From IMG/VR virus record IMGVR_UViG_2695420847_000017: 5,271 bases of DNA, one strand, 5' to 3'. The position numbers and the translations under genes were made by a program. This DNA is from a virus (taxonomy: Duplodnaviria; Heunggongvirae; Uroviricota; Caudoviricetes). The notes under the pieces are model-generated. The model was not told the DNA's origin. It was given only the letters and a program-made list of their open reading frames with translations, and made no database searches. Shown piece by piece: positions 180 through 3,280 of the stretch; the first letter of the stretch is position 1, and every line of letters begins with the position of its first letter.

Positions 180-273
180 AGCCTCACCTCCGCAAATAAC
201 GGATGGTGTACACGGTTCGGAACGAAGAGGAAAGGTATAGAAGTTACATTAGCGTAAGGCTTGAACATCTATT

Positions 274-305
274 CAAAAAGAAAAACGCCGCGATTATTCT
301 GGCGT
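274..305 (-). terminator. Candidate rho-independent terminator downstream of the AraC-family gene
   Basis: On the minus strand: stem ACGCC/GGCGU (285-289 pairing with 301-305), about 11-nt loop, followed by UUUUCUUUUU (reverse complement of 275-284). Lies about 60 nt after the stop at 367. Confidence 0.4.
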
Positions 306-366
306 AGCTGAAAGCATCATACAATTATCAAATACGAAAATTACAAAATCATTAAAACGCATCACG

Positions 367-954
367 TTACATCATGTCTTTTTCTAAAAAAAATCTTGAT
401 GAATATTGATGGGGAGGAACACCAAAATACCTTCTGAAAACACTTACAAAATATGACGTGTTTTCATAACCGCATATCTCAGCAACTTTTCCAACAGAAT
501 ATAAATTGTAGCTTAATAAGCTTTCCGCCATCACCATTCGCTCTTCAAGAATTAACTTACTAAATGATAAGCCTTCGTGCTTTAATTTTCTTTTTAACAG
601 ACTTTCACTCAGATACAGTCTTGAAGATATATCACAAAGTCTCCATGCTGCAGATATATCCGTGTGAATAATAGCCTTAACTTTACTTCCTAAACTATTA
701 AGACATCCAAATAAAAAACTTTGCACTATTTTCTCTGAAGATAAGATAGCAAGACATGCAAGTGATATTTGATTTCTAACAAAATCCACAGTTCTGCCAT
801 CACAATTCAAGCATGCAATCAAGTTCTTTAACAATGAAAAATCTTCACATTCCACCATCAAGTATGCCGGATAAAACCTTCTTACAGAAAAAGGTGAGAG
901 TGTGTTGCTTTTAAAGAAATCATTAACTGTTTTTTCTTCAACATCTACGATCAT
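367..954 (-). CDS. AraC-family transcriptional regulator (AppY/EnvY-like), 195-aa ORF holding the C-terminal HTH domain; downstream part of a frameshifted gene
   Basis: C-terminal region …SESLLKRKLKHEGLSFSKLILEERMVMAESLL…ICGYENTSYFVSVFRRYFGVPPHQY is a typical AraC/XylS double-HTH signature. The ORF begins at an internal ATG; the true N-terminus lies in another frame upstream (963-1097). Confidence 0.8.
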   Translation of the reverse strand: MIVDVEEKTVNDFFKSNTLSPFSVRRFYPAYLMVECEDFSLLKNLIACLNCDGRTVDFVRNQISLACLAILSSEKIVQSFLFGCLNSLGSKVKAIIHTDISAAWRLCDISSRLYLSESLLKRKLKHEGLSFSKLILEERMVMAESLLSYNLYSVGKVAEICGYENTSYFVSVFRRYFGVPPHQYSSRFFLEKDMM

Positions 955-962
955 TACATGAT

Positions 963-1097
963 CTATATTTGATGAAAAAAATCTTTTAAATTGTAATCAA
1001 TGAGAACAGCACTTCCTTTTTTAAACAAAATATCTTCTTTACCAATTCGGACATCAAACGAGTTCAACACCAAAATGATAGAACATATGTATAGCAT
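963..1097 (-). pseudogene. N-terminal 44-codon fragment of the same AppY-like regulator, separated from the main ORF by a 1-nt frameshift in an A7/T7 tract (975-981)
   Basis: ATG at 1097 preceded by AGGTGG. Translation MLYICSIILVLNSFDVRIGKEDILFKKGSAVLIDYNLKDFFHQI* resembles the AppY N-terminus as recalled (M-Y-CS…SFD…FKK). Adding one T to the T7 run gives a continuous 243-aa reading frame (…KDFFSSNIDHVMIVDVEEKT…). Confidence 0.6.
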
Positions 1098-1448
1098 ATT
1101 ATCCACCTGATATCATTGGGGTTACACCAGGTAAGTATAGGTGGAAAATCAATATTCGCCAGTTCAACAATAAGGAAAATTTCATTGCATCACAAGTATA
1201 AAATTATGTATTTAACTCACAAAGACAAATTATTAAACCAATCTGTTATATTATATATAGCTGCGTGGAATCATAATATTATATATTTTGACTGGCATGT
1301 TTACTAACTTTAAGTTGCATCTCAATTGTTTCTTCAGCGTAAACAGAGTTTTTATACAAACTGACACTCTGGGTATCATAGTGTAGTTTTTACGATTGTA
1401 AATATCCTGCATGCAGGAACTCATCCTTTTGGATGATATCGCATACAA

Positions 1449-2408
1449 TTAATTTACCATCAGTCTTAGAGCCAGTTCGTCCGGATAGGGATCGAAGTAA
1501 TTCTGTGTAAGCAAGTAATCATTAGGATACTCACCCAGATAATGCTTCAGCAGAGTCAACGGCGCAAGAAGAGGTAATGTGCCAGAACGATAGTTAAGTA
1601 TAACCTCGCTCAACTCTTTACGCTGGCGTGTACTTAAGTAGTTACTAAAATACCCCTGTATATGCATCAGCACATTCGTGTGATTTTTACGTGATGCAGG
1701 TTTTCTGAGAATCGCCATCAGCTTATCACGATACACCTCAAAGTATGATTCAAGGTCCGCCCACTCGTGTATTGCAGCCACAAATGGTCCCATATCTTTA
1801 TAGCCTGCCTGACTATGCGCCAACAACTGAAGCTTATAACGACTATGAAAAGCTAATAACTCTCTTCTTGATAATTTCTCCTTGTAAAGGTGATTGAGCT
1901 CATGCAAAGCAAAAACTCTTTCAACAAAATTCTCACGAAGCACTGGATCATGTAATCGCCCATCCTCTTCAACCGGTAGCCAGGAAAACTTTTCCATCAA
2001 AGTGCTCGTAAATAGTCCCACTCCATCTTTACGACCTCGATTACCATTTTCATCATAGACACGCACGCGCTCCATGCCACAGCTGGGAGATTTAGCACAA
2101 ACCACAAACCCCGATACATCCTTTAATTTGTCCATATAAGAACGACTAAACTCTGTCATTCTCTCTGTCACATCCTCATTCTGGTCGTGGCTGAAACACA
2201 TCCGTATATTTCCTTGCGTCGAGCGCACAAGACGTAGAGCAGGACGCGGAACTGGCAGCCCTATAGCCATTTCCGGACATACTGGTCTGAATGTTACCCA
2301 TTCCACTAATTTGTCCATTAAAAAGTCAGCTCTTTTGTGACCACCATCAAAACGAACAGCAGAACCGGCCAAACAACCGCTGATTCCAATCACAGGTTTT
2401 TTTATCAT
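1449..2408 (-). CDS. DUF523-DUF1722 fusion protein (TudS-like thiouracil/4-thiouridine desulfurase domain fused to a YbgA-like domain), 319 aa
   Basis: ATG at 2408 with AGGGGGAG Shine-Dalgarno. N-terminal PVIGISGCLAGSAVRFDGGHK with Cys12, Cys44 (RPVCPE) and Cys105 (VVCAKSPSCG) matches the three-Cys [4Fe-4S] pattern of DUF523/TudS. The C-terminal half resembles YbgA/DUF1722. Assigned from memory of the family, not from a search. Confidence 0.7.
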   Translation of the reverse strand: MIKKPVIGISGCLAGSAVRFDGGHKRADFLMDKLVEWVTFRPVCPEMAIGLPVPRPALRLVRSTQGNIRMCFSHDQNEDVTERMTEFSRSYMDKLKDVSGFVVCAKSPSCGMERVRVYDENGNRGRKDGVGLFTSTLMEKFSWLPVEEDGRLHDPVLRENFVERVFALHELNHLYKEKLSRRELLAFHSRYKLQLLAHSQAGYKDMGPFVAAIHEWADLESYFEVYRDKLMAILRKPASRKNHTNVLMHIQGYFSNYLSTRQRKELSEVILNYRSGTLPLLAPLTLLKHYLGEYPNDYLLTQNYFDPYPDELALRLMVN

Positions 2409-2600
2409 ATTCTCCCCCTTGACTAATTCATTAACACATAAACTGTGTAGTGCACGGAATAAATTGCCTTTCTGGCGTCATCACTGACAATTTTTCTGTT
2501 ATGGACTATTCCTAATATAGTATGAAAGTTCTTTAAGTGATCGGTCGTAATCATCTATCTTTCATACTTACTCTCAACTATCAAAAGTACAGGATTTATT

Positions 2601-3125
2601 ATGAAGTTATGGCCTGTGTTGACTGGCATTGCACTCTCTTTCACTCTTATAGCATGTAAGGCCCCGACACCACCTAAAGGTGTGCAGCCGATTACAAATT
2701 TTGACGCCAACCGCTACCTCGGAAAATGGTATGAAATAGCTCGCCTCGAGAACCGGTTCGAACGTGGTCTGGAACAGGTCAGCGCTACTTATGGAAAACG
2801 GAACGACGGAGGGATTCGTGTACTTAACCGTGGATACGATCCAACGAAAAATAAATGGAGCGAGAGCGAAGGTAAAGCATACTTTACTGGAGATACTAAA
2901 ACTGCAGCATTGAAGGTTTCGTTTTTTGGCCCCTTCTATGGTGGCTATAATGTAATCAAACTGGATGATGAGTATAAGTATGCTCTTGTCAGTGGTCCGA
3001 ACAGAGAATACCTATGGATTCTGGCAAGGACCCCAACTATTCCAGATAAAGTAAAAGCAGACTATGTGCGAACCGCTCAAAAGTTGGGATTCAATGTCAA
3101 TGAATTATTATGGGTTAAACAATAA
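2601..3125 (+). CDS. blc: Outer-membrane lipoprotein Blc (bacterial lipocalin) homolog, 174 aa
   Basis: Signal peptide plus lipobox LIAC (Cys19), with Lys at +2 consistent with outer-membrane sorting. Lipocalin GxW motif (YLGKWYEIAR) and strong similarity to E. coli Blc (…YFTGDTKTAALKVSFFGPFYGGYNVIKLD…YLWILARTP…), but clearly divergent from the K-12 protein. AGGA Shine-Dalgarno 8 nt upstream. Confidence 0.85.
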   Translation: MKLWPVLTGIALSFTLIACKAPTPPKGVQPITNFDANRYLGKWYEIARLENRFERGLEQVSATYGKRNDGGIRVLNRGYDPTKNKWSESEGKAYFTGDTKTAALKVSFFGPFYGGYNVIKLDDEYKYALVSGPNREYLWILARTPTIPDKVKADYVRTAQKLGFNVNELLWVKQ

Positions 3126-3153
3126 AATCCCTACCCGAAATAATACTTATTAG

Positions 3154-3180
3154 AAAAAAACCAGCCTTTGGGGAGGCTGG
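3154..3180 (-). terminator. Rho-independent terminator on the minus strand (candidate tR' of the late leader, or the Q transcript terminator)
   Basis: Minus-strand RNA reads CCAGCCU-CCCCAA-AGGCUGG (7-bp GC-rich stem, 3161-3180) followed immediately by U7 (reverse complement of A7 at 3154-3160). On the plus strand the hairpin is not followed by a U tract. Confidence 0.55.
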
Positions 3181-3280
3181 CTAAATCAGGAAACAAGCTG
3201 TTATATGATAATAACTACGTTGCGATTCCAACATTTAAAATGTTAGACTAATGACAATCAGACAGCAACTTTTCCTTTAA
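3181..3280 (-). promoter_or_regulatory. Candidate late promoter (pR'-like) and Q-utilisation region directly downstream of Q
   Basis: Minus-strand TTGCTG (3263-3268) and TAACAT (3240-3245) are spaced 17 bp apart. A cluster of -10-like hexamers (TATTAT/TATCAT/TATAAC, about 3200-3213) lies downstream, reminiscent of pause-inducing elements at lambdoid late promoters. Position after Q matches lambdoid architecture. Hexamers are weak; this is inference. Confidence 0.25.

Follow-up and report, generated by a model that had tools for sequence, protein, structure and literature searches.

In lambdoid phages, the interval between the antiterminator gene Q and the holin gene is a place for cargo, as with stx in Stx phages. 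The stretch of DNA analyzed here (the 5,271 nucleotides of IMG/VR virus record IMGVR_UViG_2695420847_000017, hereafter the window) raises the question of what such an interval carries when it holds neither a toxin nor a porin. An original prediction, made from the sequence of the window, had placed there a foreign three-gene block, consisting of a Blc lipocalin homolog, a DUF523-DUF1722 Fe-S protein and an AppY-like AraC regulator, within a DLP12-like prophage. The point at issue is whether these genes make up a unit that phages keep and exchange, or merely share a place. We conclude that the block, in the order Q, blc, rudS, araC and holin, is probably a composite lysogenic-conversion (moron) cassette, lodged between Q with its terminator and the holin of Escherichia coli (E. 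coli) lambdoid phages.

The position of the block follows from comparison with the DLP12 prophage of E. coli K-12. Identity is 94.9% over positions 3299-5167 and 89% over 88-190, and this flanking alignment, at roughly 95% and 89%, therefore places 191-3298 exactly where K-12 DLP12 has nmpC, interrupted by the insertion sequence (IS) IS5. The predicted limits of 180-3280 were thus right to about 20 bases, and the three genes do occupy the Q-to-holin slot as cargo. The block also differs from its surroundings in composition, with GC contents of 31.6% for the regulator gene, 43.4% for rudS and 43.8% for blc (i.e., 32-44%), as compared to 47.9% in Q and 51.6% across the nin genes (48-52% in the flanks). 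The contrast previously estimated by hand was likewise recovered, with GC fractions of 0.300 over 1101-1300 and 0.535-0.545 over 4201-4500. Moreover, as anticipated, rudS and the regulator gene lie on the minus strand, in the direction of late transcription, while blc runs antisense to it. The slot is the same one that nmpC occupies in DLP12, downstream of Q and a terminator and upstream of S, and there too the cargo is of foreign composition; in contrast to nmpC or stx, the cargo here comprises three genes, one of them antisense to the late operon, and includes no toxin or porin.

The cassette is widespread. Matches to the 3.1-kb block were found in 1156 of 5426 complete E. coli genomes, and in 992 they covered at least 80% of its length, so that the trio is far from being confined to one genome. 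The copies fall into three sequence tiers, at approximately 99%, 94% and 89% identity. Recurrence at the same junctions in other prophages, which had been proposed as a check, was observed on both sides: a 401-base probe spanning blc, the terminator and Q was present near full-length in 1080 of the complete genomes, and a 363-base probe spanning the holin and the regulator gene in 1004. Among viral contigs of IMG/VR, 127 matched, and in the best 80 of these, which were examined, the full order of Q, blc (on the opposite strand), rudS, araC and holin was seen in 74, the other six being cut by a contig end or missing one gene. In addition, 12 sequenced phages contain the block, namely IdasGreatGrand, whose recorded source is swamp mud, and 11 lambda-like coliphage records (Lambda_2E9, the Lambda_ev series and 1H12), which already annotate "Lipocalin Blc". 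As regards wider distribution, no full-length phage-borne copy was found outside Escherichia, matches to RudS in phages of other genera being only short or unannotated fragments. Two short contigs in a metagenome-assembled genome labelled Candidatus Nanosynbacter hold the E. coli phage cassette at 98-100% identity; these are almost certainly binning contamination.

At least three phage backbones carry the cassette: the DLP12 type, integrated at argU with intD; the Qin-like prophage of strain HS, with essQ and rrrQ; and lambda-like phages of the 1H12 type, with NinB, a methyltransferase and NinX. Mixed combinations of nin region and lysozyme type flank it among the IMG/VR contigs. The same Q allele stands beside the cargo in every backbone examined, with a class II holin almost always on the other side, and homology between backbones starts inside or just past Q and the holin. 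These limits indicate, therefore, that the recombining unit consists of Q, the terminator, the cargo and the holin, and the cassette would move among backbones by recombination within the conserved Q and holin flanks. The alignment with K-12 DLP12 can be read in the same terms, as its homology ends at 3299, about 18 bases before the stop codon of Q (quuD). It is therefore the cargo, and not the nin region, that the C-terminus of Q, the presumed late promoter pR' and Q loading site, and the terminator accompany. Partial copies, where examined, are secondary, having arisen by IS1-mediated deletions in the AT-rich spacer or, in BL21(DE3), by truncation with IS3. The original prediction had allowed that the trio might occur in a single genome, might co-occur no more often than chance, or might be ordinary core chromosome beside a prophage end. 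Each was tested and none held, the block lying inside complete prophages and free phages, and its interpretation is supported.

We then considered what each gene encodes. The middle gene, rudS (1449-2408, minus strand), had been recognized as coding for a DUF523-DUF1722 Fe-S protein, and this assignment can be refined. Its 319-residue product carries PF04463 (2-thiour_desulf/DUF523) at residues 7-149 (E-value 3e-40) and PF08349 (DUF1722) at residues 192-309 (E-value 2e-40), both far over their gathering scores, which defines a TudS-DUF1722 fusion. It shares 93% identity (298 of 319 residues, with 21 substitutions) with gp66 of phage 1H12, known as RudS_vir, a protein of the same length and domain fusion that is encoded at the same place in an identically ordered cassette. 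The three cysteines that hold the [4Fe-4S] cluster of RudS enzymes (Cys12, Cys44 and Cys110 in RudS_vir; Table 1 of PMC11417400) are all present in the aligned window protein. The gene is therefore rudS, and its product is a predicted desulfidase of 4-thiouridine (s4U) in transfer RNA (tRNA).

RudS enzymes strip s4U from tRNA, and overexpression of RudS_vir in E. coli lowers tRNA s4U (Jamontas et al., NAR 2024, PMC11417400). In the same work, RudS_vir conferred the shortest lag on 4-thiouracil, RudS_KT of Pseudomonas putida shortened the growth delay caused by ultraviolet A (UVA) light from approximately 105 to approximately 60 min, and rudS was tied to photolyase and to light-regulated operons. 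By removing sulfur from tRNA s4U, the cassette enzyme would be expected to blunt near-ultraviolet (near-UV) cross-linking of tRNA, together with the growth delay and stringent response. E. coli was stated there to be without RudS (PMC11417400), which is valid for K-12, but not for the approximately 20% of genomes that carry the prophage cassette. As a side observation, BL21(DE3), the host of the published RudS overexpression and UVA assays, itself contains a Qin-like prophage (NC_012971.2, 1588189-1589585), in which the same Q and an intact phage blc are accompanied by 147 nt of rudS, a 5' remnant left where IS3 cuts the gene.

Upstream of rudS, and divergent from it, lies a blc paralogue (2601-3125, plus strand). 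The predicted homology to Blc was borne out: the 174-residue product matches Lipocalin_2 (PF08212, E-value 7e-44), scores 316 bits against the NCBIfam Blc subfamily model NF007786 (cut-off 267), and matches the sequences of Blc crystal structures in PDB with an E-value of 3.5e-69. Its N-terminus, MKLWPVLTGIALSFTLIAC, contains a signal peptide and a lipobox, L-I-A-C at residues 16-19, which aligns with LVVAC of K-12 Blc. The product is thus a predicted outer-membrane lipocalin lipoprotein, which presumably binds damaged or lyso-lipids and handles envelope lipids. Identity with K-12 Blc, whose gene is next to ampC, is 59.8%, and the cassette protein belongs to a separate lineage linked to rudS. 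A phage blc has been described as a moron in more than 50% of 19 lambda-like coliphages, in a study that found lambda morons to be mostly membrane proteins (Mathieu et al., Nat Commun 2020, PMC6969025); it is the same gene, and those phage genomes are among the matches to our block. The divergent control region between rudS and blc (2409-2600) is nearly invariant among the three phage tiers, and could not be aligned to chromosomal spacers except for a short CTCAACT/CTATACT-like element. CTCAACT stands about 25 nt upstream of the phage blc start and resembles the CTATACT that one Citrobacter locus has at the corresponding position, which gives only a hint of a stationary-phase-type promoter.

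The third gene (367-1098, minus strand) encodes an AraC/XylS-family regulator of the PatE/YdeO/AppY/GadX clade. A C-terminal AraC-type double helix-turn-helix is evident from HTH_18 (PF12833, E-value 2e-14) and HTH_AraC (PF00165, E-value 1e-11), and the protein matches the structure of the GadX DNA-binding domain (E-value 3e-20) as well as phrog_1450 (E-value 5e-107). Among NCBIfam models the best was YdeO, at 127 bits against a cut-off of 348, with GadX at 85 bits against 500. Neither allows an equivalog-level assignment, and the regulator is therefore taken as a new paralogue within that clade. The earlier label of "AppY-like" was right as to the AraC family, but not as to the closest relative: homology to AppY is full-length at 32% identity (E-value 4e-42), whereas the sole AraC-family gene of prophage CP-933H in strain EDL933 is 53% identical (E-value 4e-88), so that we no longer favor that label. 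From its location, the CP-933H gene is presumably patE (z0321, OI-8). A search for PsrA in the two EDL933 prophage regions beside potABCD returned no AraC gene. PatE, PsrA, PsrB and AppY are prophage-encoded, AraC-like regulators of acid resistance, and the resemblance of the cassette regulator to PatE and AppY extends over the full length of AT-rich, prophage-borne genes coding for about 245 residues; its place, however, is the Q-holin slot, while genes of the PatE type stand at a prophage end. PatE and PsrB activate gadE and hdeAB (reviewed in PMC10877973), and the cassette regulator would most likely act in the manner of PatE, PsrB and AppY, rewiring genes of the host for acid or stationary-phase stress.

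In the window, the regulator gene is frameshifted, a feature that the original prediction did not describe. Intact relatives encode 243 residues, while the window has two open reading frames (ORFs), of 47 and 195 residues, and no intact frame. The cause is a one-base deletion in a poly-T tract (975-981, minus strand; read as A7 on the plus strand), T8 in intact alleles and T7 here, which places a stop after codon 44 of the full-length frame. The 195-residue ORF restarts at Met49 and keeps the helix-turn-helix domain, and its product cluster has 623 member sequences. The window copy is, accordingly, a pseudogene or a truncated allele. Among 60 near-identical copies of the block, no fewer than five distinct haplotype clusters have T7, while T6 and T9 are each confined to a single one, from which it follows that the tract has changed length repeatedly, by recurrent slippage. 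Such a tract could act as an ON/OFF switch, or could mark repeated inactivation of the regulator.

An AT-rich spacer of 31.7% GC (1099-1448, minus strand) precedes the regulator gene, and contains a promoter-like TTTACA-16-TATGAT at 1402-1375, which is the best match of a region where such sites are no more numerous than in shuffled sequences. Just 3' of the rudS stop (1375-1450, minus strand), the spacer folds into a stable hairpin pair (-20.8 kcal/mol, z-score -4.2), which includes CCUGCAUGCAGG, a perfect palindrome; lacking a U tract, it is not a canonical terminator, and may serve as a messenger RNA end or stability element. In different genomes, the spacer and regulator region is a hot spot for insertion sequences, with IS1, IS2, IS3, IS66-like and IS200/IS605 insertions or deletions bounded by IS1. 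The IS1-mediated deletions end in the AT-rich spacer in two of the genome copies examined, and copies without the regulator persist.

The expression of these genes has to be considered in relation to the late operon. Q (3281-3658, minus strand) encodes a 125-residue antiterminator of the Q21 structural family (PF06530, E-value 2.5e-51), remotely related to the phage 21 Q structures (E-value 2e-8). Downstream, after a spacer at 3183-3280 (minus strand) where pR' and the Q loading site are to be expected from the positions of Q and the terminator, stands an intrinsic terminator (3152-3182, minus strand), the candidate tR'. Its stem, at 3182-3159, has nine base pairs, five of them G-C, followed by U7, and folds at -18.4 kcal/mol (z-score -4.4). 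It was the only terminator called in 1-3800, and hence the only one called between Q and the holin, with weak terminator-like structures after rudS and after the regulator gene. An Rfam scan of the window returned only sub-threshold chance matches, one of them on this hairpin. In intact relatives, essD, rrrD and a "lysis protein" gene follow the cassette. Q, a terminator and lysis genes on the same strand constitute a lambdoid late operon, and in the established lambdoid model the late genes would be transcribed from a single promoter just downstream of Q. Upon induction, Q-modified RNA polymerase would have to pass the terminator and then traverse the 3 kb of cassette before arriving at the lysis genes, a course that the existence of viable phages with this layout supports. 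Such read-through would co-transcribe rudS and the regulator gene, and would run antisense over blc. In the repressed lysogen, the cassette genes would instead rely on promoters of their own, blc pointing away from late transcription as bor does. Both modes of expression are inferences.

To understand where the cassette came from, it is useful to look at rudS on chromosomes. Orthologues of 66-77% identity occur in Citrobacter, Enterobacter, Leclercia, Klebsiella oxytoca, Pectobacterium and others, and of 62 species loci, about 42 have the gene of a Blc paralogue upstream of rudS and divergent from it. The neighbourhood analysis that had been suggested for the DUF523-DUF1722 gene thus revealed a link with blc, and none with the regulator. 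The rudS-linked chromosomal Blc proteins have a mean identity of 79.6% with phage Blc and of 66.4% with K-12 Blc, and thus form a distinct Blc lineage genetically tied to rudS. The arrangement varies: in Citrobacter sedlakii, blc and rudS are directly adjacent; in Enterobacter, the gene of an MlrA-type MerR regulator and a transthyretin-like gene stand between divergent blc2 and rudS; and in Citrobacter braakii, Klebsiella oxytoca and Pectobacterium, rudS is last in an operon with genes for DUF1365, CFA-synthase-like, DUF2878 and DUF3833 lipoprotein products. The cassette has an AraC-type regulator in place of these companions. Clusters of the DUF1365/CFA-synthase-like/DUF3833 type are ones that we take to belong to photo-oxidative stress regulons. 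It was also observed that a gene for a lipid-binding-type lipoprotein lies just upstream of rudS in both of the recurrent chromosomal neighbourhoods, that of Enterobacter and the operon type (L033 4021-6960, L008 2305-6960 and L014 5283-6960). In Pseudomonas, light-responsive PhrB-LitR-RudS operons provide a further comparison.

At the DNA level, the cassette resembles the 62 species loci only within the coding regions of blc and rudS (67-75% identity), and neither a Q nor a holin homologue is present at any of these loci. A close chromosomal donor for blc-rudS was sought and rejected, as flanking and intergenic homology is absent and no recent donor appears among these loci. The lack of AraC, Q and holin homologues on the chromosomal side, together with the step in GC from 43-44% to 32%, indicates that the cassette is a composite, in which an old capture of the blc-rudS pair, of enterobacterial chromosomal origin, would have been joined to a separately acquired, AT-rich regulator gene. 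The original view of a foreign block therefore stands as to its distinct composition, but not as to its being a single foreign unit. Between the three phage tiers, the ratio of nonsynonymous to synonymous substitution (dN/dS) was estimated at 0.06-0.15 (blc), 0.11-0.24 (rudS) and 0.21-0.25 (regulator gene), as compared to 0.03-0.10 (Q). These values, with the near-invariant spacer, show that purifying selection maintains the cassette, which cannot be regarded as junk.

Several points nevertheless weigh against the explanation by a composite moron cassette. First, cooperation among the three genes is hypothetical. Second, an AraC homologue is absent from all 62 chromosomal rudS loci, so that the supposed "module" may amount to two morons unrelated to each other and lodged in one slot, and the regulator is often inactivated, by frameshifts and IS1 deletions. 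Third, RudS_vir desulfidates tRNA less than other RudS enzymes despite good expression, and the UVA phenotype belongs to RudS_KT of P. putida, not to the phage enzyme (PMC11417400). Finally, the consensus promoter scan gave 12 sites against 11 by chance, which is uninformative for pR' or moron promoters, and pR' could not be pinned down in the spacer downstream of Q, where only weak hexamers such as TTGCTG-17-TAACAT were picked out by eye.

The second of these points leads to the view that two or three unrelated morons have gathered in a permissive slot, their linkage reflecting proximity between the recombination anchors of Q and the holin. The slot does accept other cargo, as nmpC in K-12 DLP12 attests, and the regulator, with its lower GC (32% vs 43-44%), its absence from every chromosomal blc-rudS locus and its dispensability in the copies that persist without it, would fit such an origin. 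Nevertheless, blc and rudS are linked both in phages and on the chromosomes of many genera, which makes the pair more than a coincidence of the slot, and all three genes have been held under purifying selection across about 10% nucleotide divergence, instead of being swapped for other cargo. Accordingly, we consider this explanation unlikely, albeit deserving serious attention, and it applies to the regulator relative to the blc-rudS pair.

A phage-centred explanation, which overlaps with that of a moron cassette, would see rudS, with the regulator, mainly as a late lytic gene. Induction often follows UV or sunlight, and near-UV light also cross-links s4U8 in tRNA and stalls translation, so that erasing s4U would keep translation available for virions. 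The layout lends itself to this reading, given that rudS and the regulator gene are oriented with the late operon, after a Q-dependent terminator and ahead of the holin, no further strong terminator intervening, and that plaque-forming or inducible phages keep the cassette. What is known of the enzymes also agrees with it, as RudS lowers s4U and its homologue RudS_KT shortens the UVA growth delay (PMC11417400), as does the light- or photo-oxidative-stress character of chromosomal rudS operons (MlrA/MerR-type regulator; CFA-synthase-like, DUF1365 and DUF3833 genes). However, blc runs in the wrong direction for a late gene, and many cryptic, lysis-defective carriers keep an intact rudS under purifying selection, which points to a benefit for the host. 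We regard a mainly lytic role as rather doubtful.

It is also conceivable that the Blc paralogue is a phage lipoprotein for surface modification or superinfection exclusion, the rest of the cassette being incidental. Such a function would suit a lipoprotein with a lipobox, encoded against the late operon like bor/iss, which are nearby in the same phages, and would conform with the predominance of membrane proteins among lambda morons (PMC6969025). The same Blc lineage, however, is chromosomal and rudS-linked in genera without phage involvement, making this improbable. Lastly, that the block is decaying junk or ordinary core chromosome beside a prophage end, as the frameshifted regulator and IS-cut holin of the window and the common IS insertions in the block might suggest, is so improbable that we reject it for the family as a whole, although the copy in the window has itself decayed in part: in complete prophages and in free phages, Q stands on one side of the block and lysis genes on the other, the three genes give dN/dS values of 0.06-0.25, and K-12 lacks the block and has its slot filled by nmpC.

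The decay of the window copy is most visible at its holin end, in a second feature that was not part of the original prediction. Positions 1-87 are one end, of 87 bases, of an insertion sequence of the IS66 family (IS682/ISEc23-like), whose inverted-repeat end GTAAGCGTC adjoins position 88; thousands of E. coli records match them at 100% at places annotated as IS66-family transposases. What follows (88-179, minus strand) is the remainder of essD, the class II holin gene, a 5' fragment with codons 1-31 that was identified by translation and homology. The translation agrees with EssD up to ...LLDKV and then reaches a stop within the insertion sequence, and homology to an intact relative and to K-12 essD starts at position 88, that to K-12 running to 190. 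The junction between the insertion sequence and essD was not seen among the listed best matches in the complete E. coli set, all of which start at position 88. As essD is cut after codon 31 by the IS66-family element, this prophage copy is unable to lyse via its own holin, and this, together with the frameshifted regulator, marks it as a lysis-defective, decaying copy.

Between the regulator gene and the holin, a spacer (180-366, minus strand) folds on the minus strand at 335-262 into a weak hairpin, ACGCC...GGCGU, with a U-rich tail, UUUUUCUUUUU; its z-score is no better than that of shuffled sequences, and a terminator consensus scan made no call in 180-366. On the other side of the cassette, upstream of Q, lies a DLP12-type nin region (3744-5148, minus strand), with ybcN (5148-4693), ninE (4693-4523), ybcO (4569-4240), rusA (4243-3881) and ylcG (3884-3744), assigned from matches to the Pfam families RusA, YbcO and NinE and to a NinB-like family.

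Part of this picture is already known, namely the slot, the kind of element, the three gene families, blc as a lambda moron (2020) and phage RudS (2024). Nevertheless, the paper on RudS_vir treats the gene alone and does not discuss its neighbours (PMC11417400), and the allele described there differs from that of the window by the substitutions noted above. The main text of the moron study makes no mention of ybgA, AraC or a regulator (PMC6969025). In the searchable literature, we came across no account of the trio as a single conserved cassette tied to a Q allele, of its prevalence of approximately 20% in complete E. coli genomes, of a chromosomal linkage between blc2 and rudS, of the resemblance of the regulator to PatE, or of a poly-T tract of variable length; lipocalin matches in searches for the trio concerned host lipocalin-2 or unrelated systems. 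Apparently new, therefore, are the trio as one conserved cassette under purifying selection, its composite origin, and the repeated change in length of the poly-T tract.

A bolder proposal can be put forward as speculation, to which we give little credence for the moment. It holds that blc2-rudS is a dedicated two-gene unit against near-UV or photo-oxidative stress, pairing a lipid-binding lipocalin of the outer membrane with an eraser of s4U as the photosensor in tRNA, that lambdoid phages captured this unit into a Q-dependent late operon, that the eraser is boosted when UV or the SOS response induces the phage, that the slippage-prone T8 tract switches the PatE-like regulator at the population level, and that one fifth of E. 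coli strains owe s4U erasure to a prophage.

Overall, the cassette is no new kind of system, as it consists of known gene families carried as cargo in the classic moron slot, and its existence will not surprise a phage specialist. It should, however, be useful to those working on tRNA modification, prophage regulators and bacterial lipocalins. The regulator adds a further prophage-borne AraC protein of the PatE/PsrB/AppY type, possibly with a homopolymer switch. Moreover, the tie between rudS and a distinct Blc lineage, conserved in phages as well as on chromosomes, offers a testable lead on the long-unclear role of bacterial lipocalins. Finally, approximately 20% of complete E. coli genomes carry RudS, always on lambdoid prophages, and the erasure of tRNA s4U, with the near-UV growth delay and stringent response, may thus be a strain-variable trait conferred by phages.

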